Below, piece by piece: positions 1,434 to 44,116 of a stretch of DNA of 44,116 nucleotides (positions are counted from its first letter, which is position 1; the number at the start of each line of letters is the position of its first letter). Location of the stretch: the IMG/VR virus record IMGVR_UViG_3300045988_010956; one strand, written 5' to 3'. The notes beneath the pieces are model-generated. The model worked only from the letters and a program-made list of their open reading frames with translations, did not search any database and had not been told where the DNA came from. Source of the stretch: a virus. A program made the translations under genes and the position numbers.

Positions 1434-1622
1434 TTAATCACCTGAATTAGCTGATTTCAGCACATTTCTGATAAACTCTATGTCTTTATTGAAATTCTTT
1501 ATATCTTCGTTCTGTATCTCTACTGGTTTATCATTCCACAATTCTCTTCCGGCTCTTTGCCCTTGGAAGAATTGGAATTTGTCCAGAATTTCCAAACATT
1601 TAAATATTTCTTTGCTATTCAT
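1434..1622 (-). CDS. Hypothetical small protein between terminase and portal
   Basis: 62 aa starting MNSKEIFKCLEILDKFQFFQGQRAGRELW. Its ATG at 1620..1622 overlaps the terminase stop (TAATG). The track ORF extends to 1649, inside the terminase gene. Confidence 0.6.
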   Translation of the reverse strand: MNSKEIFKCLEILDKFQFFQGQRAGRELWNDKPVEIQNEDIKNFNKDIEFIRNVLKSANSGD

Positions 1623-3244
1623 TATGCACTGTGCCCCCTTCTTCTCCATAATGATTCTGTTGCATACCTACTTGCATCAATCAAATGGTTATCTTTGTCT
1701 GGATAACCACTAATGATATTTCCTTCCTTATCTCTTTCGTATTCATAATTAGAAAACTCTTTATAAGCGTTAGGCGTTCTCTTAGGGTCGATAACAATAG
1801 TTCTTGTTTGAAGCCATTTCATAGAATATGCTACACTTCCAGGTCCTTTTATTGCACCTACTGCTGGGAGTCCAAAATCTCTATAATCATTGATTGATTT
1901 AGGTTCGGCTGAATCGCAAGTAATAGTATAATCATTATATTTTCTTTTTAAAATCTCGTCCGCTGATTCTCTATTGCTCCATTTGTCTTCGTAAATTTCA
2001 TCAATGAAATATATTTTTTCGGTGTTGTGATTGTAATACAAACGGATAAAAGCATACGAATCAGGAAAAAAGCCCCAGTCGCACCCCTGAAATATTTTGT
2101 CCATGTGACCGATTTCTTCATCTGTGATATCTCTAATCTCCAGATATTCAAATACGTTTCCGCCGTTTCCATTCGCAATTCCCATGTACTCATGTTCATA
2201 AGCGTTTGGATTGACTTCTTTCAGATGCTCTGCTTCGTCAATAAATGGCTGCCCCAGCCATTTTTTTGGCACGTCCAAGTAAGTTGATGAGTGGACTATT
2301 CTGTTCTCTTTTGGTTCGAGAACATACTTATTAGCCCAGTTATTCATTGTTTTTGGTGGATTGAAGCTTTTAAATATCCATGCAAGGTTTCCACCACGGA
2401 TGGCGGACTGTTCAATCTTACGAATCTCCTCAGGTCCCGCGAATTGGTCTAACTCTTCGAACCAGAGAATGCCAATATATCCGAACTCAGGGTTAATGGA
2501 TTTAATCTTGTCAGGGTCATCAGCACCACGGAAATATATCTTTTGTCCGGTTGATTTCAGTGTAATCTCCATAGGTGATAACTTAGAATCAAATTCTTCT
2601 GTAAATTCCTGTTTTCCAATGGCCCATTTGATTTTGTTGTATACAGAATCCTTAATGGTGTTCCCGACCTTACGGCAAACCACAGCATGGATGTCATGAT
2701 TGTTCTTCATCAACTCTACTATAGTCATTCCAACAGTGGTTGATTTCGTGGAGCCACGTCCGCCCTTAAACACATACTCCAGATGTTCCTTATCTCGAAT
2801 ATCTCTAATAGCTTGGTGAAAGCGATCAGGAATGTTGTACAGATCCATATGATACGGCTTCGCATTTCTAGCAGCTTCCTCTGCTGCTTTTTTTTCTTCT
2901 TGCTCTTGCTTAATCTTTAATGCCTTTTCCAGATCATTCATGGATTTCAGCTGATCGGAGAAGTCCGGAGCAAAACCGAACGAATCTTTTAGCTCACCCC
3001 TTGCAATCATGGAGCGGCGCTGTTGGATTTCTGCCAGAGACATGATGTCAGTGCCTTTTTGTTTTTCGATGAGAGACTGTTTTTCGGCTATATATGCAGA
3101 AATATTAAGTTTTCTTAAGTTCTGTGCTCCTATTACTTCTGCGTTTTTCTCGGCATATCCAGCTTTTCTCGCGGCGTCAGATGCATTTCCGCCATTTTTT
3201 ATATATTCATCTGCAAACGCTTTCTGTTTAGGCGTTAAGTCCAT
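1622..3244 (-). CDS. Terminase: small-subunit domain fused in frame to a PBSX-type large subunit
   Basis: 540 aa. Residues ~1-130 (MDLTPKQKAFADEYIKNGGNASDAARKAGYAEKNAEVIGAQNLRKLNISAYI...) look like a Terminase_2/P27-type small subunit HTH. The rest carries the Walker A motif FKGGRGSTKSTT and the length and layout of a PBSX-family large terminase. Confidence 0.85.
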   Translation of the reverse strand: MDLTPKQKAFADEYIKNGGNASDAARKAGYAEKNAEVIGAQNLRKLNISAYIAEKQSLIEKQKGTDIMSLAEIQQRRSMIARGELKDSFGFAPDFSDQLKSMNDLEKALKIKQEQEEKKAAEEAARNAKPYHMDLYNIPDRFHQAIRDIRDKEHLEYVFKGGRGSTKSTTVGMTIVELMKNNHDIHAVVCRKVGNTIKDSVYNKIKWAIGKQEFTEEFDSKLSPMEITLKSTGQKIYFRGADDPDKIKSINPEFGYIGILWFEELDQFAGPEEIRKIEQSAIRGGNLAWIFKSFNPPKTMNNWANKYVLEPKENRIVHSSTYLDVPKKWLGQPFIDEAEHLKEVNPNAYEHEYMGIANGNGGNVFEYLEIRDITDEEIGHMDKIFQGCDWGFFPDSYAFIRLYYNHNTEKIYFIDEIYEDKWSNRESADEILKRKYNDYTITCDSAEPKSINDYRDFGLPAVGAIKGPGSVAYSMKWLQTRTIVIDPKRTPNAYKEFSNYEYERDKEGNIISGYPDKDNHLIDASRYATESLWRRRGHSA

Positions 3245-4098: not shown

Positions 4099-4498
4099 TC
4101 TTGAGTTCCTCCAACTTCTTCTCAGCTTCCTCGTGGGTGAGGAATACTGCTTTGCCAAGTTTGTTTCCTGAAAATCCGTCCAAGTTGGGATAGATTCCAC
4201 TGTTCAACATCCACCTGAAATAAGTGTCATGCATATCAACTGATATCATTACGATTCTCAATTCTGAAATAAAATTTCTTGTTGGAACATATACCGTATC
4301 TCCGACCTTACACGGCAATCTCACAAGCAAGCCCTGTTCTTCTAAGTCCTCGTAGTCGGCAAGTTTTTTAATCATATTCTTTATTGTTTCGCAATTTCCT
4401 GCGCCCTGTGAGCAGCTATCACAATATTCACCACATTCAATCTCTCGTTTTTCGTTATATGTGACACTACCATTTTCCCATTCAGTTAATCTTTCCAT
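4088..4498 (-). CDS. Hypothetical protein with N-terminal Cys cluster
   Basis: 136 aa; contains CGEYCDSCSQGAGNC; abuts the upstream gene. Confidence 0.6.
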   Translation of the reverse strand: MERLTEWENGSVTYNEKREIECGEYCDSCSQGAGNCETIKNMIKKLADYEDLEEQGLLVRLPCKVGDTVYVPTRNFISELRIVMISVDMHDTYFRWMLNSGIYPNLDGFSGNKLGKAVFLTHEEAEKKLEELKNEI

Positions 4499-4888
4499 CT
4501 ATTTCACCTCTTCCATTTGACTTTCTACAGTATCTGCAAGTAGCTTCAACGATTCAATAAATGAGTCCGTCAATGCTGTTCTGTCTGGGTATTTAGCGAA
4601 TGCTCTGACAAGATTTACTGCATCCTTGATTTCCTCTTCAGCTTCGACGATTTCAGATGCTTCATACAATGTCTTTTCTTTATTTCTGTAAGCAACGTTT
4701 TTGCCATCGTAAAAATTCAATACATTTGGAAATGGAATTTTGATAGGGATTAAATTGTTTTCTCTCACCCATGTGAATCCCTGAAACTTTGCCATTTTCA
4801 GAACGCTCAAATATTCTTCCTGCGTTTTTACGAATACGCTTTTTCCAGTTAAATCAATCATCTGCGTTTCCTCCCGTAATTGCATCAA
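4499..4888 (-). CDS. Hypothetical protein
   Basis: 129-aa ORF in the early operon; no recognised motif. Confidence 0.55.
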   Translation of the reverse strand: MMQLREETQMIDLTGKSVFVKTQEEYLSVLKMAKFQGFTWVRENNLIPIKIPFPNVLNFYDGKNVAYRNKEKTLYEASEIVEAEEEIKDAVNLVRAFAKYPDRTALTDSFIESLKLLADTVESQMEEVK

Positions 4889-5102
4889 TGCAATTATTCC
4901 AACCTGCTTTTATACTGTTCCAATGGTCTGTTACAGCTACTCTAGTTATTTTCTCCGGCAATGGCTTCAATGGACACCAATTAGGGATTACATCATTGTT
5001 CGGAACTCTCCTACCATCCATTGCTCTGCACCAAAATTCGCTTATAAATTTACATTTTTCGCAATTCTCCGGTGTATCAATCACCAATACTGATTTACTC
5101 AT
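4854..5102 (-). CDS. Hypothetical protein (CxxC-containing)
   Basis: 82 aa; contains PENCEKCKF and NWCPLKPLP. Confidence 0.55.
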   Translation of the reverse strand: MSKSVLVIDTPENCEKCKFISEFWCRAMDGRRVPNNDVIPNWCPLKPLPEKITRVAVTDHWNSIKAGWNNCIDAITGGNADD

Positions 5103-5359
5103 TCAGTTCCACCGCCTTTCACGATTTCGATTGCTAAAGCTATCGTCTGTTCTTTTTCAATGTATCTCAGTCTTTGCGTGCTGTCATTAGTTCCCAAACA
5201 TAGTTTAAATGCTCTCTTCTTTTCTTCTTCTAACCGCTCCACAACCTTATCCACATCAAAAACTGTCGGCTGTTCGTCAATAACTGCACCTATTGCAAAA
5301 TCCATATCCGAATTTCCAAGAGAGTCAATTATTTTGTCTGCATCAATCAGTCTGCTCAT
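5099..5359 (-). CDS. Hypothetical protein
   Basis: 86 aa; 4-nt overlap with the downstream gene. Confidence 0.55.
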   Translation of the reverse strand: MSRLIDADKIIDSLGNSDMDFAIGAVIDEQPTVFDVDKVVERLEEEKKRAFKLCLGTNDSTQRLRYIEKEQTIALAIEIVKGGGTE

Positions 5360-5582
5360 CTACTTCACCCTCTTTCTCGTCAAAAGCCAAATCAACTCTG
5401 ATTACATCCGTTCCTGTCGCGAAAAAACAATTTACTTCTAAGTCGTAAAATGGTTTCAGCAGCTTCGATCTGGCATTGAATGTATCGTAATTCTCCCGGT
5501 TTCTGCCCGGGTGACATATCTGTATTTTATTTTTACTTTCAGGATCGCCGCCAATTGCTGCTATTAAATCAATTAACTTCAT
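5343..5582 (-). CDS. Hypothetical protein
   Basis: 79 aa; abuts the upstream gene. Confidence 0.55.
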   Translation of the reverse strand: MKLIDLIAAIGGDPESKNKIQICHPGRNRENYDTFNARSKLLKPFYDLEVNCFFATGTDVIRVDLAFDEKEGEVDEQTD

Positions 5583-5897
5583 TTATTTTTCCTCCCACAC
5601 TCCCAACAACCGCATCCTCTCATACAGTACAGCGACGGTCTTGCGTCTGTATCCGTAGAAGTCTTTCGGATTCATTGGGATATATCTTTCTCTGCTGATT
5701 TTTCTGTAACTTTTCCGGTGTAAGATATTTTCAATAACCATATCCGCTATCACCGTGTTCTTCGGGCAAGCTGACAAGGCAGCACCGGAAAGCAGGTATC
5801 CGTACTCTGCCGGGAAGTCTTTCAGCATCGTATTCAGTTTTTCAATGTCCTCTGCCGGAATACCGTAGTCTTTCAGCTTTTTATTCCTTGTCAGCAT
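5583..5897 (-). CDS. Putative phage transcriptional regulator (ArpU/RinA-like late activator, tentative)
   Basis: The start MLTRNKKLKDYG at ATG 5895..5897 has RBS AAAGGAG. The C-terminal part SYRKISRERYIPMNPKDFYGYRRKTVAVLYERMRLLG resembles the sigma region-4-like HTH tail of phage late activators. The gene lies upstream of the packaging genes. Confidence 0.35.
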   Translation of the reverse strand: MLTRNKKLKDYGIPAEDIEKLNTMLKDFPAEYGYLLSGAALSACPKNTVIADMVIENILHRKSYRKISRERYIPMNPKDFYGYRRKTVAVLYERMRLLGVWEEK

Positions 5898-6008
5898 ACC
5901 GTTCTCCTTTCTATTTGTCTGAGTGGTGCTTATCGTACATGATCGCCACACATACAAGGCCAACCACTCCGACTATGACTCCAAGTGTAAGCCCTAACAA
6001 GAATGTAA

Positions 6009-6416
6009 TCATGGCTCGTCCTCCTTATATGGTTCTGGATAGTCCATCCATGCAACTACTGTTCCGCCTAAAACTTTTTTATCCGTTCTCCAAATTCCAT
6101 CAGTAGTATGTGCCTGCTCTACCAATACTGCTCCATCGTCAAATACAACTGTAGCAATCACATATTTAGATGTTTTTTCGAACATTCCTCTTTTCCAGTT
6201 ATCCGTTCCTTTAAACTTTGCAAATATGGAATCGTGTTCTTCCGGCATCCTCTCACTGACTGGAATCCAACCATTTTCTTTCTCGTCCTGTTCCAGATCA
6301 TCCTTAATCTGTTCTATCATTTCCAGAACATCGCTTGCCAAAACCATCTGGTGGTCATCCGCAAGTTTCTTCACAAAATCATGATAATCCGATAATCTGT
6401 CTTTGATATGGCTCAT
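6009..6416 (-). CDS. DUF551-like phage protein
   Basis: 135 aa; contains the GWIPVSERMPEE motif typical of DUF551. Confidence 0.5.
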   Translation of the reverse strand: MSHIKDRLSDYHDFVKKLADDHQMVLASDVLEMIEQIKDDLEQDEKENGWIPVSERMPEEHDSIFAKFKGTDNWKRGMFEKTSKYVIATVVFDDGAVLVEQAHTTDGIWRTDKKVLGGTVVAWMDYPEPYKEDEP

Positions 6417-6432
6417 ATTATTCCATCCTTTC

Positions 6433-6999
6433 TCAATTCCAGCTTCTTACCATGTGAAACAACAGTTCTGTCATGGATCTTTTTCTTGACCCATTGTGTC
6501 CACACTTCAAAATAACTGATAATCTCCATTTTTCCACATCTCCATCTAGTGGTGTTGGGTTTTCAAATTCTTCGGCAACATCTCTCTGATACGGAACTGC
6601 AACCATTACTCCCATGTTACCTATTTCCGCGTAACATTCTGGAAAATTCTCACGTATATGTTGGGCAAATTTTCCATTTTTTAAATCAGGTAAAATCTCT
6701 TTGTAGCACTCCATTGTTGTTACAAGATAGTTTTTTTCGCCAATAAAATTTAATCCATTTCCGCTGTAAATATCCTCTTTGCAGCTTTTGATTTCATAGC
6801 ATGTAAATATTCCTTTTTCGATTGATGAGATAGAACACTGGTTTTCCGGAATAAACTGCATGTAATTTACTCTTCTTGGCTTTCCTGCTGCGTAGCCATA
6901 ATCAAGGCTTACTTCTCTAGCCCAGTATTTACCTGGGCCGGAAAAACAGCTTTTTTCCATCAATTGACCAAGAAATTTTGTTGTTTCATATCTTTTCAT
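6433..6999 (-). CDS. PD-(D/E)XK-like (MmcB-like) protein, tentative
   Basis: 188 aa. The pattern WAREVSL...PRRVNYMQF...GIFTCYEIKSCKEDI resembles the restriction-endonuclease-fold core. Confidence 0.35.
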   Translation of the reverse strand: MKRYETTKFLGQLMEKSCFSGPGKYWAREVSLDYGYAAGKPRRVNYMQFIPENQCSISSIEKGIFTCYEIKSCKEDIYSGNGLNFIGEKNYLVTTMECYKEILPDLKNGKFAQHIRENFPECYAEIGNMGVMVAVPYQRDVAEEFENPTPLDGDVEKWRLSVILKCGHNGSRKRSMTELLFHMVRSWN

Positions 7000-7235
7000 A
7001 CTTCCACCTCTGAATCCTCTGGCATCTGATAATCAGCATGTCCATTTACATAGGCTTCCTGAATCATATCCAGTACCTTCATGGCTTTTGTTTCCGTTTC
7101 GTAATGTCCAAGAATTATATAGTCGCTATCTTCAATACCAGATATACCAAAGCAGATAACTTCGCTATCCATTACATAAAAGGTGATATTGTTAGTGCTT
7201 ACAAGATACTTTTTGTTCTGACTTCTGATTAACAT
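6996..7235 (-). CDS. Hypothetical protein
   Basis: 79 aa; start overlaps the stop of the upstream small ORF. Confidence 0.55.
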   Translation of the reverse strand: MLIRSQNKKYLVSTNNITFYVMDSEVICFGISGIEDSDYIILGHYETETKAMKVLDMIQEAYVNGHADYQMPEDSEVEV

Positions 7236-9448: not shown

Positions 9449-9636
9449 AGTAACCTTCGTTAACCGAGAAGTAACCGAGCGAAAATCCGCAAACCCTTGA
9501 TTTTACTGGTAGGTAACCGAGTAACCGAGTAACCCTGACTTTCTCATATAGGGAAACTTTTATACTCAATATGTGCATATAAATACTCAAATATATATAT
9601 GCAGAATCAAAGGTTACCTAGGTTACCCGGTTACCT
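9449..9636. other. Putative replication origin: GTAACC(GAG) iterons flanking an AT-rich segment
   Basis: Direct copies at 9450, 9460 (TTAACC), 9471, 9513, 9521 and 9529. Inverted GGTTAC copies at 9612, 9621 and 9629. The AT-rich core between them includes ATATATATAT. The region is non-coding and next to the helicase gene. Confidence 0.6.
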
Positions 9637-9653
9637 TTTGGACGAATTGTTTA

Positions 9654-11561
9654 TCAATCAAATACAATATCGTCTGTAATCTCAAAATCATCATTACAAT
9701 TCACGAATCCTTTCGGAATTTCATCTACAATTTTCAAAAACACACATTTGGTAACAATTCCATCCAGTTTCTTTGCTTTGGTCGGATAACCTCTGCTGTC
9801 GGTTTCCACAAGCCCCTTCTTAACAGCCCATGACAAAAATGCTTTCCTGGAGAATCTTCCGATTTTGCATAAATCATCAAACGCTGCGCTATAGATTATT
9901 GCGGTTGACGTCTTCTCTGCCGGATCATTGTCAATAACTCCCCATCTTTCTGTCTTAACATCCGGGTTATCATCGAACTTAATTCCGTTCATAGCAATCT
10001 TATCAAGCACGAACCAGTAAGCGCGTTCGTTTTCAGATACCATTTCTTTCTCTGTCAGAAGATTCTTAGCTGTCTCAATGTCAATGTACTGGCCATCATG
10101 GAACAGGTGATCTGTTGCGATTTTATCTGCTGCCAAGATAATGCTCATTGATATACTCTGCTTCTGCATTTTATCATCATCCTGTATAAGGCTCTGAAAA
10201 TGCTTCTGCATGGCTTTTATATCGTCAATGGACATTTCCTTAACTACATTTACAAAATCAATTCCTGCGTACCCGTAGTTCTTCTTAAGGGTATCTGCGG
10301 TAAGCTGCGGATCATCAAATATCTTTTCAGAACACTCAATCTCAATAATTCGGTTGATCGCTCCACCCTGGCTGACATACCCGGCCAGTGGACGTTCACC
10401 GTTAGTAAGGATACAATTCTGCCAGCGATTCTCCCGGTTAACACCAAGTTCCTTGTTGGAACGGCTCTTTCCTTTTCCAGAACACAGGTCATATACAATT
10501 CCTTCGAAATTATCCCGGATTTTAGCCGATACTTTGGAAGTATCGTCCAGGATCAACGGTAAGTTGTTGAGCATATCAGACTTTGCTTCAAGGGCCACAT
10601 CGGTTGTTTTAAAATCTCCTATGTATCTGGATTCGCCAGGGTTCGCCCAGACAGAAGCTCCTAGCATAAGTGTTACAGTCTTACCACCCTCGGTTTCTCC
10701 CCAGAGGTCTACAAAAAATGGAAGGGCACCGACCAGTTTGATCAGAATACTGGCGAAGCTTGCGGCCAGCATGATTTTCGGCTCTATTCTTCCAGTAGCA
10801 CGAACATTCTTCACGTGCTCATACCATTCTGTCCTGCTGCCACCTACGCTGATACTTTCATACAGTTGTCGGAACCTCATGTCTCCATCGAACACAATAT
10901 CCTTGTCATAGGGAAGAAAATAATCCCTGATCCACCCGATTTTACTTGATGAATATTGAATATTGATATAATCGTCATTGGCATTCTCTACGTCTGACAG
11001 ATACCGGACAAGGAACTTCGCATTCTCAGAAGTCACTGAAATACCAAGCGCGGATAAACCAACAATTTTGCTCGCTGACGCAACCATGGTTTTTGGAACA
11101 ATAACCTCTGACCACTTATTATTCCTCTTATAGATTAGCTTTATCTGTTCTTCTCCGGTCTCCAGATTCTTCATTCTCTCTATTGGAAGTATAGGATGAT
11201 AACAAGCTATGATGTCCGGTGATCCTGGATTCGTATTTGATATTCTGATCCCATCATCATCTGCTACCCAGTTAAGGCACTTCATTCTGTCGTATTCGCA
11301 ATCAGAGAAATTAGTCCACTGGTCCAGCATCGAAACAGCCTTGCTACTTTTTTCTTTTTCAATCATCTGCTTCTGTACTTTCGTATAAGCCTTCAGCAAA
11401 TCTTCAAATTTTTTCTTTACGCCAAGCTCCTTGGCTCTGTCCAGAAGAGTCAGCGTAAGACGTGCCTTGTATATCTCGTCTTCCTGGCTGAATATCTCGT
11501 CAAACACTTCTTCGTCCAGAATAGAATCCTTCGTGAGCTTGTTTATCATTTCCACTTTCAA
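9654..11561 (-). CDS. Replicative helicase-like P-loop NTPase (DUF927/Cch-like)
   Basis: 635 aa; Walker A LWGETEGGKTVTL; Walker B-like LPLILDDTS; 4-nt overlap with the upstream CHC2 finger gene. Confidence 0.6.
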   Translation of the reverse strand: MKVEMINKLTKDSILDEEVFDEIFSQEDEIYKARLTLTLLDRAKELGVKKKFEDLLKAYTKVQKQMIEKEKSSKAVSMLDQWTNFSDCEYDRMKCLNWVADDDGIRISNTNPGSPDIIACYHPILPIERMKNLETGEEQIKLIYKRNNKWSEVIVPKTMVASASKIVGLSALGISVTSENAKFLVRYLSDVENANDDYINIQYSSSKIGWIRDYFLPYDKDIVFDGDMRFRQLYESISVGGSRTEWYEHVKNVRATGRIEPKIMLAASFASILIKLVGALPFFVDLWGETEGGKTVTLMLGASVWANPGESRYIGDFKTTDVALEAKSDMLNNLPLILDDTSKVSAKIRDNFEGIVYDLCSGKGKSRSNKELGVNRENRWQNCILTNGERPLAGYVSQGGAINRIIEIECSEKIFDDPQLTADTLKKNYGYAGIDFVNVVKEMSIDDIKAMQKHFQSLIQDDDKMQKQSISMSIILAADKIATDHLFHDGQYIDIETAKNLLTEKEMVSENERAYWFVLDKIAMNGIKFDDNPDVKTERWGVIDNDPAEKTSTAIIYSAAFDDLCKIGRFSRKAFLSWAVKKGLVETDSRGYPTKAKKLDGIVTKCVFLKIVDEIPKGFVNCNDDFEITDDIVFD

Positions 11562-16360: not shown

Positions 16361-16648
16361 ATGATAACTGGGAAACAATATCGGCTAATGAGGTCCGTTC
16401 TTAAAAATAACGGAACCACTGCACAAGATACCGAGAATCACGAAATGTATAGATACTTAGCATCTAAAGGATTCTTGCACAAGCAACCCGTGCGTGGGTA
16501 TGAGGGCTATGTGGTCACTCAAGACGGTGAAGTTGAAATGAAAATATACAGAGAAGATACTTACCGTTTTAAAGTGACTACTGCAATCTCATTCATTGCT
16601 CTTATCACAAGTATCGTTTCCGCAATTTTGAAATTCTGTATCAAGTAG
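16361..16648 (+). CDS. Plus-strand tail-anchored membrane protein embedded antisense in the early operon
   Basis: 95 aa; strong RBS GGAGGTG before the ATG; TGATATACT extended -10 at 16328..16336; C-terminal TM segment ISFIALITSIVSAILKF. It fills a gap that is otherwise non-coding on the minus strand. Confidence 0.6.
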   Translation: MITGKQYRLMRSVLKNNGTTAQDTENHEMYRYLASKGFLHKQPVRGYEGYVVTQDGEVEMKIYREDTYRFKVTTAISFIALITSIVSAILKFCIK

Positions 16649-16819
16649 ATCGTCTGCAAGATGTCCGAGTGGTATTCTTTTGCCGGGTTCCAGATGGATA
16701 GGATTTGGAAGCTCTAATCCATTCGCTTCCCCGGTAAGAATCGCCACTTTTAACTGATTTACCTGTTTCTGCAAATCTCTTACATAATCAAATAGATACT
16801 GAATATCTGATTTGTTCAA
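16589..16819 (-). CDS. Hypothetical protein (TTG start)
   Basis: 76 aa; first ORF after the cro-like gene. Its last ~20 codons overlap the convergent plus-strand gene. Confidence 0.45.
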   Translation of the reverse strand: MNKSDIQYLFDYVRDLQKQVNQLKVAILTGEANGLELPNPIHLEPGKRIPLGHLADDLLDTEFQNCGNDTCDKSNE

Positions 16820-16838
16820 TTATTAACTGCTCCCTTCT

Positions 16839-16857
16839 AATTCAATTTAATTGAAGT
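16839..16857. promoter_or_regulatory. Operator-like near-palindrome AATTCAA-N5-TTGAAGT
   Basis: Same half-site and spacing as the two operators in the switch region. It overlaps the stop codon of the cro-like gene. Confidence 0.4.
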
Positions 16858-17050
16858 TATTTGGCACAAAAATAAAGTCCATAGGAATTCCAGAAAGCTC
16901 ACTCATTTTTCTGAGCTGTGATAATGTCGGCTCTGTTTTTCCTTTTTCCCAATTAACTACAGTTACATTGGAAATACCGAATATTTCAGCCCATTCTTTC
17001 TGATTGTATCCTGCGTTCACTCGAACAGCTTCTAATGAAATTTTTGGCAT
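16847..17050 (-). CDS. Cro-like XRE-family HTH regulator
   Basis: 67 aa; NQKEWAEIFGISNVTVVNWEKGKTEPTLSQLRKMSEL is a typical HTH_XRE. It is divergent from the repressor gene. Confidence 0.8.
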   Translation of the reverse strand: MPKISLEAVRVNAGYNQKEWAEIFGISNVTVVNWEKGKTEPTLSQLRKMSELSGIPMDFIFVPNNFN

Positions 17051-17081
17051 TTGCTCATCTCCTTTCTTAACTTCTGAGCTT

Positions 17082-17169
17082 ATTATAATTCAACTGTATT
17101 GAATTGTCAACACCAAAATTCAAAATAATTGAATTAACTATTGAATTTTTTATAAATATGATGTACAAT
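17082..17169. promoter_or_regulatory. Divergent lysis/lysogeny switch: two promoters and two palindromic operators
   Basis: Minus strand: TTGACA (17110..17105) - 17 nt - TATAAT (17087..17082). Plus strand: TTGAAT (17141..17146) - 17 nt - TACAAT (17164..17169). Operators AATTCAA-N5-TTGAATT lie at 17087..17105 and 17117..17135. Confidence 0.7.
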
Positions 17170-17194
17170 ACAAAATGTAAGGAGGAAAAGAATC

Positions 17195-17572
17195 ATGACA
17201 ACCATGACAACTGAAGAGCAGAAAAAGATCTTCTCGAACAATCTTAATAAGTACATTTCAAGAAGTGGTAAGCAGCAAAAGGAAATCGCTGAAGCCATTG
17301 GAACAAACGCATCTACATTTAATATGTGGTGCAAAGGTAATTCGATGCCGGGAACCGGAAAGATTAGAGCCTTAGCCGATTATTTCCGAATAAGAATGTC
17401 AGATTTGACAGATTTAAAAGAGAATCAAGACCCTGATATTGAATTTGGAGATGTAGTTACAAAAATCGAGCAGTCAGACCCTCGTTTCAAAAGAATCATT
17501 CTTGAATACGATAACCTGCCGCCCGATAAAAAAGATTTGTTATGTGATTTTTTTGAGAAGTTTATTTTCTAA
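17195..17572 (+). CDS. CI-like XRE-family repressor without a peptidase S24 domain
   Basis: 125 aa; IFSNNLNKYISRSGKQQKEIAEAIGTNASTFNMWCKGNSMP is an HTH_XRE; RBS AAGGAGG. Confidence 0.8.
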   Translation: MTTMTTEEQKKIFSNNLNKYISRSGKQQKEIAEAIGTNASTFNMWCKGNSMPGTGKIRALADYFRIRMSDLTDLKENQDPDIEFGDVVTKIEQSDPRFKRIILEYDNLPPDKKDLLCDFFEKFIF

Positions 17573-17577
17573 AGCAC

Positions 17578-17604
17578 AAGGGTAGGAATCATTTTCCTGC
17601 CCTT
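17578..17604. terminator. Hairpin terminator after the repressor gene
   Basis: AAGGGTAGGAA-TCATT-TTCCTGCCCTT, followed by TCTTCC. Confidence 0.45.
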
Positions 17605-17674
17605 TCTTCCTTATAAGCCCTTTTTACGCACCCGTAAATAAATTTTATCATTGATTCACTATGTATTTTCTGTA

Positions 17675-18109
17675 TCATCTCAATAATCTCCTTCTTATAA
17701 TCCATAAATAACCCTCCCTATTGCAATTACCACCTACATTACAGTATATGTGCGGTTTGTGGGAAATATAACCGAACATTCGTTCATTTTTTGCTATTAT
17801 ATCGCTAATGTTTGCCCTTGGAAACTGCCAGATATACACCGATATGTTTATGATTGCATAGAAATTATTCGTAATATCAAAGATATAGTCTTTTCTGTTT
17901 AGCGGCAGGGCGAATAAAAATGGCGGCATGGTCTGCTTTATTTCATGGGCGCTATTCTTATGTAGGGTAGAAGATCTGTACGCATTTTGGACAGAATACA
18001 CTTCTGACTCTTCGCGGATATAATCGTCTACGCACATTGGTAAATAAACAATGTAATTAAGCAAAAGCACAGCTCCTATTATAATTAGTATATTTTTGAT
18101 TATTTTCAT
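17675..18109 (-). CDS. Hypothetical membrane-anchored protein (lysogeny-island moron)
   Basis: The start MKIIKNILIIIGAVLLLNYIV has RBS AGGTGA. It has an N-terminal TM segment, lies in a very AT-rich stretch, and runs opposite to its neighbours. Confidence 0.55.
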   Translation of the reverse strand: MKIIKNILIIIGAVLLLNYIVYLPMCVDDYIREESEVYSVQNAYRSSTLHKNSAHEIKQTMPPFLFALPLNRKDYIFDITNNFYAIINISVYIWQFPRANISDIIAKNERMFGYISHKPHIYCNVGGNCNREGYLWIIRRRLLR

Positions 18110-18134
18110 TTTATAAATCACCTAAAAACGTCTA

Positions 18135-18163
18135 TTTACAACTAAATTTAACGATGCTATAAT
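18135..18163 (+). promoter_or_regulatory. Sigma-A-type promoter for the response-regulator operon
   Basis: TTTACA - 17 nt - TATAAT. It overlaps the inverted repeat ATGCTAT-N7-ATAGCAT. Confidence 0.6.
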
Positions 18164-18231
18164 AAAAATAGCATATTTAAACACTTTTTTTTGCAAATGG
18201 CGAAAACAACGCCCATAAGGGAATGATTTGA

Positions 18232-18936
18232 ATGAAAATTGCGATTTGTGACGATGATAATTTACGAATTGAGATTTTCAAAAGTAGCATTGACCGATAT
18301 CTAAAAGAGCATGGTGATGGTGGATATACAATAACCACCTACACCAGCGGAAAGCCTTTGATCGACGATGCTTCAGATGGTGAATGGTATGACATAATAA
18401 TTCTTGATGTATCCATTAACGGAGAAAATGGCATAGAGATTGCCAAAAGATTAAGAAAAATCGGATACTATGGAAATATCACTTTTTGGACAGAGCGCAA
18501 AGAATATGTATTTGATGCGCTTGATGTGCTGCCGGTTCATTACATCATTAAAGGCTCTGAGCATGGAAGAATGTATTCAGTTGTTGAGCAGACTCTCGAA
18601 AATATCCGTGAAAAAACGCTTACCATCAAGAACAAGGACTACTTTCACAGAGCTGAATTCCGGCATATTGAATACATCGAAAGCCAGAACAAATACATAA
18701 TGATCCATTGCACGTGCGGAATATCACACAAGGAACGAGGAAAGCTCAATGATATCGAAAAGAGTCTTGACGGAAGATTTTTGCGCTGCCACCAGAGCTA
18801 TATTGTTAATATGGACGAGGTAAGCGAAGTAAGCCATTTTTTTACGATGGTATCTGGTGCGATCGTCCCGATCAGGCAAAGAGAACTTGCAAAAATAAGA
18901 GAAAAATATGAAAACTACGTCATTGGAGGGAGATAA
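18232..18936 (+). CDS. LytTR/AgrA-family response regulator (REC + LytTR)
   Basis: MKIAICDDD...YDIIILDVSINGENGIEIAKRL is the receiver domain. FRHIEYIESQNKYIMIH...FLRCHQSYIVNMDEV is the LytTR domain. Confidence 0.85.
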   Translation: MKIAICDDDNLRIEIFKSSIDRYLKEHGDGGYTITTYTSGKPLIDDASDGEWYDIIILDVSINGENGIEIAKRLRKIGYYGNITFWTERKEYVFDALDVLPVHYIIKGSEHGRMYSVVEQTLENIREKTLTIKNKDYFHRAEFRHIEYIESQNKYIMIHCTCGISHKERGKLNDIEKSLDGRFLRCHQSYIVNMDEVSEVSHFFTMVSGAIVPIRQRELAKIREKYENYVIGGR

Positions 18937-18939
18937 AGC

Positions 18940-19509
18940 ATGAGCGAAGAAAAAACCAAGAAGTGCAAACATTGTAAGATGGACATTCCAAAAGATGCAA
19001 AAATATGTCCACATTGTAGAAAGAAACAAAAAAGTGGAATATTAAAATGGGTTGTATTAATACTTATCATAGGAGTGGTTATCGGTGCTGTCACGGGCGA
19101 AAGTGATTCGGGATCAGATAAAAACACAGCAGCCACTACTTCTACAGAAAAGAAAGAAGCTGCTACCAAACAAAAAGAAGAAGCTACACCAATCGAGTAC
19201 ACTACTGTTTCCGTGAATGACATGATGGATGCCCTTAATAATAACGCTATGGGAGCGTCTGACAAATATAAAGGTAAATACCTTGAGATTACCGGAAAGC
19301 TCACAAACATTGATGCAGCCGGAAAATATATTGATCTTATGGCTGATGGAGATTTTGAGATTATTGGAGTTCAGTGTTACATCAAAAACGACGACCAGAA
19401 AGCTAAAATAGCATCTATGTCAAAAGGCGACACTGTTACATTGAAAGGAAAATGTACGGATGTCGGAGAAGTACTTGGATATTCTCTTGATATTGATGAA
19501 ATAGAATAA
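18940..19509 (+). CDS. Zinc-ribbon / single-TM / extracellular OB-fold (tRNA_anti-like) protein
   Basis: CKHCKMDIPKDAKICPHCRKK is the zinc ribbon. WVVLILIIGVVIGAV is the TM segment. DKYKGKYLEITGKLTNID...IGVQCYIKNDD...GDTVTLKGKCTDV is the OB-fold domain. RBS GGAGGGAG, 3 nt after the regulator stop. Confidence 0.75.
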   Translation: MSEEKTKKCKHCKMDIPKDAKICPHCRKKQKSGILKWVVLILIIGVVIGAVTGESDSGSDKNTAATTSTEKKEAATKQKEEATPIEYTTVSVNDMMDALNNNAMGASDKYKGKYLEITGKLTNIDAAGKYIDLMADGDFEIIGVQCYIKNDDQKAKIASMSKGDTVTLKGKCTDVGEVLGYSLDIDEIE

Positions 19510-19520
19510 ATGATAAAAAA

Positions 19521-19555
19521 AACCGGCTCTCGCTACCAACGAGGACCGGTTTTTA
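19521..19555 (+). terminator. Rho-independent terminator
   Basis: AACCGGCTCTCG-CTACCAA-CGAGGACCGGTT followed by TTTT. Confidence 0.6.
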
Positions 19556-19647
19556 AAAATAAGACAATTCCAGAGAAAAATCTTACCTGCACATTAAGTA
19601 TATCATCTCCGGGATTGCCATACAAGTGTAAAAAGGAGAATGATAAA

Positions 19648-21222
19648 ATGAATGAATCAGTATGCATCTATTTGAGGAAATCCAGAGCCGACCGGGAAGC
19701 TGAGGCGCATGGGGAGGGTGAAACTCTTGCCAGACACGAACATATCTTGCTGGACCTTGCAAAAAGACAAGGCTATAGCATTGGTGCCATCTACAGAGAA
19801 GTGGTTTCCGGCGAAACAATCTCCGCGCGTCCAGTCATGCAAAAACTTCTCCACGAAGTAGAATCCGGGCTGTGGGACGGTGTTCTGGTTGTCGAAGTAG
19901 AACGTCTTGCCAGAGGTGACACTATCGACCAAGGCGTTGTGTCCAGAGCTTTTCAGTACTCTGACACGAAGATTATCACTCCTACAAAAATATACGATCC
20001 AAACAATGAATTTGACGAAGAGTATTTTGAGTTTGGACTTTTTATGAGCCGTAGAGAGTATAAGACCATCAAGCGTCGATTGAATAATGGTAGAATCTCA
20101 TCCGTAAAAGAAGGTAAATACTGTGGCAACAAGCCACCTTACGGATACGAAAGAGTAAAACTCGAAAAAGAAAAAGGTTATACCCTCAGACCCGTTCCAG
20201 CTCAAGCCGAGATCGTAAAGATGATTTACACTTGGTATGCCGGTGATGGCTGCGAGCAAATTGGGGTTGCGAAGATTGTGCGAAAATTAAATGAAATGGG
20301 AATAGAGTCTGCACTAGGCGGTGACTGGACTCCTGCTAGTATACAGGGAATTCTAACAAATCCGGTATACATCGGGAAAATACGATGGAACGGGAGAAAA
20401 ACAGTAAAGGCTATACAGAACGGACAAGTGGTCAAGACGCGTCCACGATCTAAGGATGTCCTTATCTGCGAAGGATTACATCCGGCTATTATATCAGACG
20501 ATCTGTATAATTCTGTGCAAGAGATACGTCAAAAGAATCCGTATCGTCCGATCAGCATAAAAAACACAGTTCGCAATCCGCTTGCCGGAATTGTCTATTG
20601 CAATAAATGTGGGCGAGCTATGGTCCGACGCCCTTATCAAAAACGTGGGCAGGAAGATACTCTCATGTGTCCATATACGTCTTGCTCTACAGTGAGCAGC
20701 AAATTATCTCTAGTTGAAAAAGCTGTGATTGATGGAATTAGGGAGATTGCGGAGGAATATAAGTTAAACAATGATATTAATGTTCCGTCTAACACTATTG
20801 ATTCCGGTATAACATCCAAACAAAATCTTATACGCGAAAAAGAAAGTGAGCTGGAAAGCTTAAATTCCCAAAAAGCAAAACAATATGATCTGCTTGAGCA
20901 AGGAATCTACACCACAGAAGTCTTCCTTGAACGATCCAAAACTATATCCGCATCTATACAATCATGCTCTGATACTATTGCGAACTTGAGAGAAGAAATC
21001 GAACACGATGAGAATATTAAGGCACAACAGTCGGATTTTGTTCCACGTTGCGAAGAATTACTTAATAACTATTGGAACCTTAACATGGAATCACGAAATA
21101 GAATGCTCAAGAGTCTGGTTGAAAAAGTCGTCTACTCAAAAAACATTAAAAATACTTACGGCAAAGGTAATGAAATCAATTTTGAGCTAGACATTTTCCC
21201 AAAAATTCAAAAAAATGATTAA
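19648..21222 (+). CDS. int: Large serine recombinase (integrase)
   Basis: The start MNESVCIYLRKSRADREAE has RBS AAGGAG. It has a resolvase catalytic Ser motif, VVEVERLARGD, a recombinase domain, a zinc-ribbon region CNKCGRAM...CPYTSC and a coiled coil. The track ORF start at 19510 reads through the terminator. Confidence 0.85.
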   Translation: MNESVCIYLRKSRADREAEAHGEGETLARHEHILLDLAKRQGYSIGAIYREVVSGETISARPVMQKLLHEVESGLWDGVLVVEVERLARGDTIDQGVVSRAFQYSDTKIITPTKIYDPNNEFDEEYFEFGLFMSRREYKTIKRRLNNGRISSVKEGKYCGNKPPYGYERVKLEKEKGYTLRPVPAQAEIVKMIYTWYAGDGCEQIGVAKIVRKLNEMGIESALGGDWTPASIQGILTNPVYIGKIRWNGRKTVKAIQNGQVVKTRPRSKDVLICEGLHPAIISDDLYNSVQEIRQKNPYRPISIKNTVRNPLAGIVYCNKCGRAMVRRPYQKRGQEDTLMCPYTSCSTVSSKLSLVEKAVIDGIREIAEEYKLNNDINVPSNTIDSGITSKQNLIREKESELESLNSQKAKQYDLLEQGIYTTEVFLERSKTISASIQSCSDTIANLREEIEHDENIKAQQSDFVPRCEELLNNYWNLNMESRNRMLKSLVEKVVYSKNIKNTYGKGNEINFELDIFPKIQKND

Positions 21223-33291: not shown

Positions 33292-33584
33292 TCAGATACC
33301 TCCTCATAAGTTTTTTCAAAAATATTTGGTTTACACGGATATAATTCTCCGTTTACACCCTGGATAACATAATCACCAATAGATACATGATGATTGCCTT
33401 CCAGAGTTTTGATATACAATTCTGGAATATCAGATGGTTTCGTCCTTGGAATAATATAATACATTGTTCCTTCTTTAAAGGCTTTTACTGCCCAGTCCGG
33501 CACATAATACTCGCCGTCCCTATCTTTCAAATCGCCATCATACTGAAATGCTTCAATTACAACTGGTTTCTTTCTAAATTTCAT
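33288..33584 (-). CDS. Hypothetical small phage protein
   Basis: 98 aa; the pattern MKFRKKPVVIEAFQYDG...GDYVIQGVNGELYPCKPNIFEKTYE recurs in small phage proteins. Confidence 0.55.
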   Translation of the reverse strand: MKFRKKPVVIEAFQYDGDLKDRDGEYYVPDWAVKAFKEGTMYYIIPRTKPSDIPELYIKTLEGNHHVSIGDYVIQGVNGELYPCKPNIFEKTYEEVSE

Positions 33585-41940: not shown

Positions 41941-42239
41941 GCTTCCTCGCTTTCTTCAAGTAATGTGTCTGTCATCAGTGCCGTATACATAACCTGTGCC
42001 TCGATACGATCTTGCTGAGTTGGTTGTTCTTCTGGGAGTTCCGTCTGAATCTTCTCCAGTTCGGCAATTTCTTCGGGCGTCATATCTCTGTAGACCATTC
42101 CCATCACTGGTACTTCACGGGTACGGGTCTCTTCATGTTCCTCGGAGATGAGGTTATTTTCTTCGTCGTACTCGGCTGGAACGGTTACTGTGTAGGATTC
42201 TGTACGGGTTCCTGTTTGTTTGTATTCTGCTATTTTCAT
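41937..42239 (-). CDS. Acidic small protein in the XkdW position
   Basis: 100 aa; translationally coupled on both sides. Confidence 0.5.
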   Translation of the reverse strand: MKIAEYKQTGTRTESYTVTVPAEYDEENNLISEEHEETRTREVPVMGMVYRDMTPEEIAELEKIQTELPEEQPTQQDRIEAQVMYTALMTDTLLEESEEA

Positions 42240-43897
42240 CAGTTACCGAGCCTCCTAGAATATATCTTTATATTTGTTCCAACTGGAAATTTTTCTCCAT
42301 TAACAAGGTATATGTTAATCCTATTAATGATACTTATAACATCGGGATTTTTAATGCCATAAGCTTGATGGCGCAGATATTCAGAATTTGTCGCGCTAGC
42401 CGGATTAATTGCTGCGAAAGTATTATTTTCTCCAATCCATAGGCCCCCAATATCCCTCATTTTGCCTATATAATACTTATAATCTTTTGCCATAAATATA
42501 TTATTATATATTTTGTCATTATTAAATGAAATCCATCCGTTTGTATTTTTTGTTGCCGCATTCGGAAGTTCAATGTAAACAATAATATCTTTTTCATTTA
42601 AAGCATTACCATTGTCTTTTTGTGTATACGTAATACTTACTGTTTCTTCTTCCAGTGTGGTACTGATAATTACAGCGTAATCACCAACCCCCATCCTCTC
42701 CCTAGCTGCCGCCTGTTCCTCTGCTATCCATGCAGCACCTTTTCCATCACACATGGCGGCTTTGACGGCGTAGTCAAGAGAGTAGTTAGGCACAATCGGA
42801 CAAAATGAATTATTCCTTGCATCAATGTTTGATTTTGATGCTGCTTGTATTCTGATAAGTCCCGTACTCGCATCAGCTTTTACAATGCCACCTCTTGTCA
42901 CATATTTATCTATAGTTACTAATCCTGCCTTTTCTGTTTTCGTAGCAAGCGGTATCTCCGCCACACCATCTTGCACGATACTCTCACCATTAATCTGGAC
43001 GTCTAAGTTGCTTCCACCATCATCCGCCCACTCGCAGACGAATGTGCCGTCTTCGTTGACGGACTTGATTTTGAGGATTTTACCAACTTCGGGAGTTGGG
43101 GGAGAATCAAGAAATCCGCTGTCATTTTCTAGCTCAGATGTCTTTGTTGGAATCTTTGTATTATCTGGTAATGCACCAACTTCTTCCGCAGTATATGTCG
43201 GTTTTTCTGGTTGTTTCGCCCAGTCTGGAACTGTTGGGTCGGTCTCTTCAAACGGGTGTTCTTGCATATACGCGCCGACAGCTTCTTTGATTTCTTCCGT
43301 AGACGCACCGCCTGTCATGTCCTTCGCTTCGAAATCTGTCGGTTTGCCGTCTGTACCGACTTCTTTTACTGCTATTACCTGTCCAACCTTTGCGGACTGC
43401 GGTCGAGTGATTTTCTCTGACAGGTCAAGATTCAGATTGTCACGTATTTGCTCCGTATCTTTCGCTGCTTTTTCTGCCCGATCAGCCGCGTTATTGACCG
43501 CTGTAACCGTTTCATGGAAAATATTCGGTTCCGGTGCTGGATCTACGCTTGGATTCTCTGGCTTTGGTCGACTGTACACCGGAATAGTAATTCTGTACTC
43601 TGTATTGCCGGATTCCTCATCAGCCACATATATGAATGCATAGATGGAAAAATCACCAGACTTTCCATTGTTTTTCAGTAATTCGTCTGGAATCTTAACA
43701 GTTGTCACGCCATCCATTGTTGTTCCAACTCTTGACAGTGTGCTTCCGCCTCTTATATCGAGGCTAAAATGTACCTCCGTAGCTGTTGGAAGATTCTGTC
43801 CCGTGATGCTCAATATCTGACCGTAGTCGTATTGCCAGATTTTACGGGTTGTCACGAATCTATAATCTAATTGTACTGGTATGATATTAGTGTCCAT
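42239..43897 (-). CDS. Tail-fibre-like protein (BppU-N-like N-terminus)
   Basis: The start MDTNIIPVQLDYRFVTTRKIWQYDYGQILSITGQNLP has RBS GGAGAGGAG. It contains the fibre-type motif TKTSELENDSGFL and an AT-rich C-terminal domain. The track ORF starts at 43963. Confidence 0.6.
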   Translation of the reverse strand: MDTNIIPVQLDYRFVTTRKIWQYDYGQILSITGQNLPTATEVHFSLDIRGGSTLSRVGTTMDGVTTVKIPDELLKNNGKSGDFSIYAFIYVADEESGNTEYRITIPVYSRPKPENPSVDPAPEPNIFHETVTAVNNAADRAEKAAKDTEQIRDNLNLDLSEKITRPQSAKVGQVIAVKEVGTDGKPTDFEAKDMTGGASTEEIKEAVGAYMQEHPFEETDPTVPDWAKQPEKPTYTAEEVGALPDNTKIPTKTSELENDSGFLDSPPTPEVGKILKIKSVNEDGTFVCEWADDGGSNLDVQINGESIVQDGVAEIPLATKTEKAGLVTIDKYVTRGGIVKADASTGLIRIQAASKSNIDARNNSFCPIVPNYSLDYAVKAAMCDGKGAAWIAEEQAAARERMGVGDYAVIISTTLEEETVSITYTQKDNGNALNEKDIIVYIELPNAATKNTNGWISFNNDKIYNNIFMAKDYKYYIGKMRDIGGLWIGENNTFAAINPASATNSEYLRHQAYGIKNPDVISIINRINIYLVNGEKFPVGTNIKIYSRRLGN

Positions 43898-43962
43898 CTT
43901 ACTCCTCTCCGAATAATGTTGGTTCGTCTGGCTAAGCTTCTTTAACCATTGTTCTAATCTCA

Positions 43963-44116
43963 TTACTCTTCTTCAAAAAAATCTCTCGTTTTGTTTTCCT
44001 CTTTGGCTTCTTGTGAAATTTTTTTTGCTTCCTCTTCGGTATATCCATAAAATTTCATCAAATAACGCCAAAATGCTACATGCCCGGAATTTACATAACT
44101 GTACCACGTCATCCTG
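43963..44116 (-). CDS. Portal protein C-terminal end (continuation of 1..1397 across the junction)
   Basis: In the same frame across the 99-bp overlap: ...FYGYTEEEAKKISQEAKEENKTRDFFEEE, then TAA at 43963..43965. Confidence 0.8.
   Translation of the reverse strand, partial: RMTWYSYVNSGHVAFWRYLMKFYGYTEEEAKKISQEAKEENKTRDFFEEE
44018..44116. repeat. Terminal direct repeat, copy 2
   Basis: Identical to 1..99. Confidence 0.95.

Follow-up and report, generated by a model that had tools for sequence, protein, structure and literature searches.

The stretch of DNA analyzed here, IMG/VR record IMGVR_UViG_3300045988_010956 (44,116 nt; hereafter the window), is a temperate phage genome of roughly 44 kb with most of its genes on the minus strand. 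Its lysogeny block runs on the plus strand and holds, in order, a cI-like repressor, gene m (itself on the minus strand), the promoter and gene of an orphan response regulator (RR), the gene of a membrane protein with an OB fold (the OB protein), a terminator, and a large serine integrase (Table 1). The RR-OB operon and the divergent gene m are the subject of this analysis. An initial annotation, made from the letters of the window, had described a promoter, two translationally coupled genes, and a terminator placed between repressor and integrase, and every one of these elements was recovered. With a promoter and a terminator of its own, the operon is a self-contained transcription unit inside the lysogeny module.

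Table 1. Features of the lysogeny region (window positions, except where a related locus is named).
Feature	Position	Strand	Remarks
Genetic switch	17082..17149	.	Leftward consensus promoter TTGACA-17-TATAAT, 17110-17082
Switch operators, 19-bp palindromes AATTCAA-N5-TTGAATT	17087, 17117, partial 17141		Helix-turn-helix (HTH)-type, not LytTR-type
cI-like repressor, 125 aa	17195..17572	+	HTH only; own terminator 17578-17604
Gene m, small membrane protein, 144 aa	17675..18109	-	Divergent from RR; 91-155 aa in relatives
RR operon promoter	18135..18163	+	TTTACA-17-TGcTATAAT; 11/12 consensus positions, TG extension
Putative extended -10 of m promoter, TGcTATTTT	18165..18173	-	Back to back with RR -10
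Conserved box TGGCGAAAA	18198..18206	+	TTTTCGCCA on minus strand; candidate LytTR half-site
Orphan response regulator (RR), 234 aa	18232..18936	+	REC (D59 acceptor) + LytTR
OB protein, 189 aa	18940..19509	+	Zinc ribbon 1-33, transmembrane (TM) segment 34-50, linker about 51-84, OB fold 85-189
Operon intrinsic terminator	19518..19554	+	Arms 19518-19532 / 19540-19554, then T-run; terminator scan
Large serine integrase, 524 aa	19648..21222	+	Pfam Resolvase + Recombinase + Zn_ribbon_recom
SHOCT cargo of related prophages	L002/L003 6726-7622		Just downstream of RR

A promoter scan ranked the RR operon promoter second-best in 16500-20000, and the promoter is kept in RR class A (that of the window) and in class B of related prophages. 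Since it is near-consensus, no activator should be needed for its use. The RR gene ends with TAA at 18934-18936 and, after a gap of 3 nt, the ATG of the OB gene follows at 18940; the ribosome binding site of the latter, GGAGGGAG, lies within the 3' end of the RR gene, as in translational coupling. The operon terminator corresponds to inverted repeat I3, whose 15-nt arms are 87% complementary. The open reading frame (ORF) listed immediately downstream, 19510-21222, is most likely over-extended, with the integrase starting at 19648.

The RR had been predicted to join a full receiver to a LytTR DNA-binding domain, and Pfam recovered both, matching residues 3-117 to Response_reg (E = 3e-10, above the gathering score) and residues 139-225 to LytTR (E = 2e-15, with a score of 57 bits where 22.6 is the threshold). 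Among 23 aligned homologues, the most distant at 23% identity, D8, D59, and K107 never varied and D7 and T87 hardly did, which confirms on alignment the conserved acidic pocket that the initial annotation had staked its reading on. The best match in the PDB, the receiver domain 6m8o (deposited as 'DNA-binding response regulator'), aligns at the acceptor Asp, the Thr, and the Lys. To judge from these residues, the RR looks phosphorylation-competent. Comparison of 64 distinct alleles from IMG/VR contigs gave a ratio of nonsynonymous to synonymous substitution rates (dN/dS) of 0.13 overall, 0.10 for REC, and 0.18 for LytTR; by this measure, the RR is under purifying selection.

The absence of a histidine kinase from the phage, also claimed initially, was borne out. 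No kinase domain occurs in the ten window ORFs scanned with Pfam, five further ORFs of at least 250 aa (among them the two longest as well as 42239-43963) lying outside that scan; nor did a six-frame translation of the window match a hidden Markov model (HMM) of three AgrC-like kinases, or those kinases and AgrB by tblastn. Among phage-family loci, 0 of 103 had an AgrC-type kinase within about 4 kb, whereas in 67 of 78 cellular relatives (26-36% identity) the directly neighboring gene, on the same strand, encoded an AgrC-type (HATPase_c_5) kinase. By these comparisons the RR is a true orphan, so that its phosphorylation by a host Agr/Com-type kinase would be the most economical assumption. Scores against the NCBIfam equivalog models were all far below the cut-offs (AgrA, 41/400; LytR, 57.9/375; BtsR, 34.4/246). 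Considering these scores together with the kinase-less phage loci, we regard the RR, on sequence grounds, as a distinct phage-restricted clade of AgrA/LytR type, whose kinase was lost or never carried.

This clade is met very often in human gut data and belongs to prophages of Blautia obeum and B. fusiformis. One of its 90% clusters (P0001) has 1512 member sequences, and a relative at 70% identity (P0006), which bears the name "Blautia obeum DNA-binding response regulator", appears in 1556 indexed blocks. Among species-representative genomes, a close copy (97%) was found only in B. fusiformis and a 52% copy in one Ruminococcaceae metagenome-assembled genome, while the rest were at most 36% identical. 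The gene contexts of P0047 and P0056, which are among the nearest cellular relatives, were uninformative. The nearest non-phage relatives, P0047, P0051, and P0068 (38-40% identity), are proteins of 359-365 aa that continue at the C-terminus beyond REC and LytTR; one of the three has a recorded Hpt domain (PF01627), and REC-LytTR-Hpt is an unusual architecture. P0051 represents 1604 member sequences.

The window locus shares features with several known systems. Like the AgrA of AgrA/AgrC-type two-component systems of Firmicutes, the RR has REC and LytTR domains and the D/D/T/K pocket, and its cellular relatives sit beside HATPase_c_5 kinases; unlike those systems, the phage cassette comes without kinase, AgrB, or peptide gene and has no AgrA-type repeat pair before the RR promoter. 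CdtR of Clostridioides difficile is an orphan LytTR regulator at the binary-toxin locus that requires Asp61 and whose kinase is unknown (PMC6699598). It resembles the RR as an orphan REC-LytTR regulator on an accessory locus but controls adjacent toxin genes, whereas the candidate target of the phage RR is the divergent gene m and its cargo is co-transcribed from a promoter with no need of an activator; close homology between the two was not detectable, the only Clostridioides entries among the matches listed being LIBA phages. One of these, C. difficile phage LIBA2945, carries an apparently orphan RR beside antirepressor genes. The agr3 locus of phage phiCDHM1 comprises agrB, agrD, and agrC but no regulator, and a few phage LytTR-domain genes "may listen in" (Hargreaves et al., PMC3901668), an idea repeated without functional data in a 2025 review. 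Both phiCDHM1 and the window thus have phage-borne Agr-type signaling parts in gut Clostridia, but as mirror images, since in the window the regulator stands alone, in the lysogeny module. Ruminococcus phage NatCom_29429 (PV036441; L183), a 74-kb gut phage, has an apparently complete Agr-type set at 4190-7078, consisting of AgrB (minus strand), a 42-aa ORF, a REC-LytTR regulator, and a HATPase_c_5 kinase, all annotated as hypothetical. It is likewise a case of phage-borne Agr-type parts, but its regulator comes with kinase and AgrB.

The second gene of the operon had been described as encoding not a kinase but a zinc-ribbon/TM/OB-fold protein, and this description held. Residues 35-175 match Pfam tRNA_anti-like (E = 4e-20), with weak zinc-ribbon matches at 7-31, and 16 homologues all keep the four Cys of the ribbon (CxxC-N10-CxxC). 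AlphaFold2 places a helix at residues 34-50 and models the OB domain, 85-189, with confidence (pLDDT 82-93); basic residues precede the TM helix. In the predicted topology the ribbon is cytoplasmic and the OB fold extracellular. The OB domain is strongly constrained (dN/dS 0.054), whereas the low-complexity linker is fast-evolving (dN/dS 0.64). A PDB sequence search with the OB protein returned no match. Its best PHROG is phrog_8545, "superinfection exclusion Sie-like" (E = 1.6e-18). Gp22 of R. gnavus phage phiRg507T2_3, an annotated superinfection-exclusion protein, occupies the same cro / cI / X / int / endolysin layout, and the zinc ribbon at its N-terminus shares 76% identity with residues 6-30 of the OB protein. 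The OB protein therefore shares with Ltp-type exclusion proteins (TP-J34 Ltp; phiRg507T2_3 gp22) the cI-X-int slot and the zinc-ribbon/TM anchor of gp22. It differs in its ectodomain, a tRNA_anti-like OB fold where gp22 has two Ltp repeats (PF07553, E = 1e-50), and its role is a prediction. From its family and position, the OB protein is most likely an interchangeable, superinfection-exclusion-type surface cargo of the repressor-integrase slot, predicted to be expressed in the lysogen and exposed at the surface.

To what extent the RR and the OB protein form a pair can be judged from related Blautia prophages, which have a common slot (repressor - m(-) - [cassette] - integrase) filled in five arrangements. 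RR-A is followed by the OB gene in the window, in L010-L017, and in 79 of the 80 best IMG/VR RR loci. In L098, RR-A is followed instead by a membrane-anchored Mrr_cat protein (restriction-endonuclease fold; 4193-4894), whose start overlaps the RR stop. RR-B, 70% identical to RR-A, is followed by a two-TM glycine-zipper SHOCT protein (L002-L009; 8/8 loci). Only a convergent endolysin lies downstream of RR-C (62-67% identity) and of a 52% relative (L187-L191 and L196). Finally, MT835739 (L001), L149, and L150 have an OB gene without any RR. Repressor and integrase of L003 match those of the window at 100% and 92% identity, yet L003 carries RR-B and SHOCT; therefore, the cassette was swapped between identical flanks. 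In addition, synonymous divergence (dS) on the same contigs was 0.076 for RR versus 0.83 for OB, with the rise across the start of the OB gene, which indicates that recombination joined a near-clonal RR allele to OB alleles that are old and diverse. RR-A likewise occurs together with three types of integrase and with no fewer than eight families of repressor. The alternative cargo suggests that the position after the RR is a hotspot for cargo or defense genes. Neither the RR, OB, and m proteins nor the SHOCT protein matched any PADLOC defense system.

These arrangements bear directly on a second proposal of the initial annotation, that the two genes form a LytTR regulatory system like HdrRM/BrsRM of Streptococcus mutans, in which a membrane protein inhibits the regulator and release leads to positive autoregulation of the operon. 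The gene order is the same, a LytTR regulator and then a membrane protein in one translationally coupled operon; the OB, SHOCT, and TM-Mrr cargo proteins are all membrane proteins; the RR allele co-varies with the cargo (A with OB, B with SHOCT); and class C relatives have the geometry of 9-bp repeat, 12-bp spacer, and extended -10, but on the opposite strand. Against this, the systems described consist of a LytTR regulator and a membrane inhibitor (PMC6193735), whereas the RR has a full, conserved receiver. In the stretch 4-11 bp before the -35 of the operon promoter, repeats do not exceed the level of chance, and this promoter, being near-consensus, requires no activator. Moreover, RR-C and the RR of L196 are partnerless, OB genes occur without RR, the cargo proteins are mutually unrelated, and the dS values of RR and OB are tenfold apart. 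A survey of co-occurrence thus failed to support the pair, since the partner is not conserved, an outcome that the initial annotation had itself named as telling against it, and we consider an HdrRM/BrsRM-type mechanism very improbable. We regard the RR and OB genes as co-transcribed without being a sensor-regulator pair. Placing the OB protein in an exclusion or cargo slot removes the tempting reading of a "new sensor pair".

Gene m, on the other side of the RR promoter, has a strong ribosome binding site, AGGTGA, ahead of its ATG at 18109. Its product has a hydrophobic N-terminus and a conserved motif, VYxWQxPR. The gene is conserved at the protein level (25-40% identity), with a dN/dS of 0.36 in frame versus 1.7 and 0.8 out of frame. 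The protein had no match in Pfam, PHROG, or PADLOC, and its AlphaFold2 model was unusable (pLDDT 43). The C-terminal tail KNE.MFG.ISHKPDIYCNVGGSCDREGYLWII is kept even in relatives at only 40% identity, and some copies of the gene end at 106-109 aa. A palindrome at 18147-18181 was considered as an operator and rejected, as a better explanation is that two extended -10 elements lie back to back there, TGcTATAAT on the plus and TGcTATTTT on the minus strand.

The most conserved block between m and the RR in classes A, B, and C is AAATGGCGAAA. The conserved box lies at about -48 to -40 of the putative m promoter and at about +28 to +36 of the RR transcript. Read on the minus strand (WWTWCGCCW), it stands 27 nt (26-28) upstream of TGnTAnnnT in all three classes, and only 3 of 171 loci depart from this spacing (both counts with duplicate contigs included). 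The -10 hexamers of m vary among the classes (TATTTT, TATAGT, TACAAT), and the 27-nt spacers share only some 37% identity. The box stops 4 nt short of the -35 position of the m promoter, which is poor (CAAAAA, the reading in the window, or CTGTGT). Class C has two boxes, AATTCGCCA-N12-ATTTCGCCA, phased by 21 nt and ending 4 nt from the -35 position; in this class, the spacing between box and RR promoter is not kept. LytTR regulators use 9-bp repeats with a 12-bp spacer, 4-11 bp from the -35, and an extended -10 (PMC6193735), and the class C pair has this geometry. The simplest reading, which we put forward tentatively and at less than even confidence, is that the RR activates gene m through the box. 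An RNA hairpin in the 5' untranslated region around the box was also considered; it was present in class A only and, judged by eye, not conserved in B and C, and a reading at the level of RNA structure was dropped. Within the window, the single 9-mer is not enriched, and a search for box pairs with 3 mismatches returned two matches, 5035-5064 (inside a small ORF) and 33508-33537, about the level of chance.

Taken together, we favor, if by a modest margin of confidence, an accessory ("moron") cassette of Blautia prophages that is expressed in the lysogen and consists of two separable modules on one transcript. The first would be the kinase-less AgrA/LytR-family RR, which a host kinase is presumed to phosphorylate on D59, because the phage encodes none; the donor would most plausibly be of AgrC/ComD type (HATPase_c_5), like the kinases paired with the cellular relatives. 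Phosphorylated RR would then bind the box upstream of the m -35 position and switch m on, as the comparative geometry suggests, and might also sit on its own leader at the box. The second module would be the OB protein, a swappable cargo of the slot that, from its family annotation and position, may act in superinfection exclusion at the cell surface.

Several observations weigh against this explanation. The m promoter was read by eye and is not called by a consensus scan. The window has a single box, with 3/9 matches where a second one would lie, yet LytTR regulators as a rule bind repeats in pairs. A TGGCGAAT-like box occurs in the leaders of OB genes that lack an RR (L149, L150) and in L196, which lacks m, so the box could be a leader element unrelated to the RR; gene m, in turn, is also found in RR-less prophages. 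No host RR exceeds about 40% identity to suggest a cognate kinase. Several RR copies (P0033, P0039, P0043, P0045, P0048) are frameshifted, at differing positions but into one shared alternative frame. As for the cargo, the assignment of the OB protein to superinfection exclusion derives from PHROG annotation and synteny, with no match in PADLOC, and Foldseek returned only generic OB folds (aminoacyl-tRNA synthetase anticodon domains and the Klebsiella "putative nucleic-acid-binding lipoprotein" 3F1Z). Lastly, each of the three kinds of cargo is a membrane protein, so that the RR and its cargo may be functionally linked after all. The frameshifted RR copies all end in ...SRTRTTFTELNSGILNTSKARTNT and are either decaying copies or sequencing errors.

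The initial annotation had further proposed the operon as an input to the lysis-lysogeny decision, noting that the repressor lacks a cleavage domain. This observation stands: Pfam found only HTH_3, HTH_19, and HTH_26 in the repressor, with no S24 or other cleavage domain, and the protein falls in PHROG families of transcriptional regulators and repressors. The LytTR-type repeats expected upstream of phage promoters, including the switch, were not found there, and the 19-bp elements of the switch turned out to be palindromic HTH sites. Specifically, 16600-19700 contained no LytTR-type 10-mer repeats (at least 9/10 matches, spacing 19-23), and 18075-18134 no 9-mers of at least 7/9 matches at a spacing of 20-22 nt, with weaker matches at the level of chance. 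The whole window contained 35 9-mer repeats (at least 8/9, spacing 20-22) versus about 21 expected, none of them at a convincing promoter. One repeat, 9561-9590, was rejected as a LytTR site, as it sits in an iteron-rich, origin-like region.

If the decision were under quorum control, host-phosphorylated RR would activate m, and m or another target would tip lysogeny toward lysis. The divergent arrangement and the activator-type box at -48 to -40 of a putative promoter without a -35 would follow the logic of transcription factor-small ORF (TF-smORF) modules (PMC10432266); the repressor has no cleavage domain, and no antirepressor-sized ORF is evident beside cro in the window, although no systematic scan was made. 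Such modules, like VqmA-Phi/Qtip of vibriophage VP882, place a signal-responsive phage transcription factor by a divergent small gene, but they use one-component receptors and their smORFs inactivate the phage's own cI (PMC10432266), whereas the RR needs a kinase, the product of m is a membrane protein, and the module does not depend on the type of repressor. One and the same RR allele (at 90% identity or more) accompanies at least eight unrelated repressor families, as do m alleles, and therefore the RR cannot act via a specific repressor or its operators; since every known smORF antirepressor targets its own cI specifically, a repressor-specific mechanism like that of Qtip is unlikely. In addition, the N-terminus of m is hydrophobic, m occurs in prophages without an RR, the RR gene sits in a lysogeny-oriented gene block behind a promoter of constitutive appearance, and repeats of LytTR type are lacking at the switch and other phage promoters examined. 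We thus consider quorum-controlled induction unlikely. A generic effect of the RR on induction, through m or through host genes, may exist.

A different outlet for the RR would be the host itself, with the RR binding host promoters that a host LytTR regulator would otherwise control, or draining phosphate from a host AgrC-type kinase as a decoy, and so rewiring quorum-regulated host traits such as bacteriocins, sporulation, or defense to the advantage of the lysogen. Such lysogenic conversion would suit an orphan RR with an intact pocket and a promoter that looks strong and constitutive, its independence of immunity and integrase type, its wide spread in gut metagenomes (the P0001 and P0006 counts above), and the location of related prophages in or beside sporulation genes. 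However, no cellular RR shares more than 40% identity with it, so nothing points to mimicry of one particular host regulator, and the LytTR dN/dS of 0.18 argues against a pure phosphate sink. We regard conversion or decoy action as possible but on the unlikely side.

The favored accessory cassette breaks no new mechanistic ground, yet it is a prevalent and clean case that lends itself to direct tests: a single protein, its 9-bp box, the divergent promoter, and a limited set of host HPK10-type kinases would show whether gut prophages tap the two-component signaling of their hosts. Quorum-listening phages are known mainly from Vibrio-type one-component receptors and Bacillus peptide systems. A literature search found no characterized phage-borne LytTR listener and no published description of a kinase-less AgrA-type regulator module in the lysogeny region of a gut prophage, and the present locus offers a clean, abundant, sequence-defined Blautia case whose RR module moves across immunity types, integrases, and cargo. 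In its boldest form, which we consider doubtful, Blautia prophages would read a host peptide-quorum kinase of AgrC type through the kinase-less RR and switch m on at the LytTR box. Were this so, it would be a Gram-positive, phosphorelay-based counterpart of TF-smORF and VqmA-Phi modules, and would tie prophage induction, exclusion, or control of host lysis to host cell density in an abundant gut commensal.

The sites of integration were also compared. The integrase of the window is 92% identical to that of prophages inserted in a cotJC-like gene. In L003 (9327-9545) and L011 (6887-7216), prophages with the window type of serine integrase abut a 72-aa fragment downstream of cotJA-cotJB; since this fragment matches only residues 1-69 of an Mn-catalase (CotJC-like) protein, the prophage appears to split cotJC. 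Relatives with a tyrosine integrase lie next to a short SpoIIIAG-like ORF, found where the spoIIIA operon ends. The insertion sites look sporulation-gene-associated.

Three other features of the window were noted. At about 9450-9640, GGTTAC / CGGTTAC(T/C) repeats cluster together with an AT-rich stretch in the space that separates a DUF927 primase-like gene (9654-11561) from the neighboring small ORF; they look like the iterons of a replication origin. A 95-aa ORF with a hydrophobic C-terminus (16361-16648, plus strand) lies inside the leftward early-gene block and shares sequence with the end of an ORF on the minus strand; without any PHROG match, it may be another accessory gene or may be spurious. 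A 540-aa ORF on the minus strand (1622-3244) combines Terminase_2 (residues 3-110) with Terminase_3 and Terminase_3C and appears to be a fused TerS-TerL.

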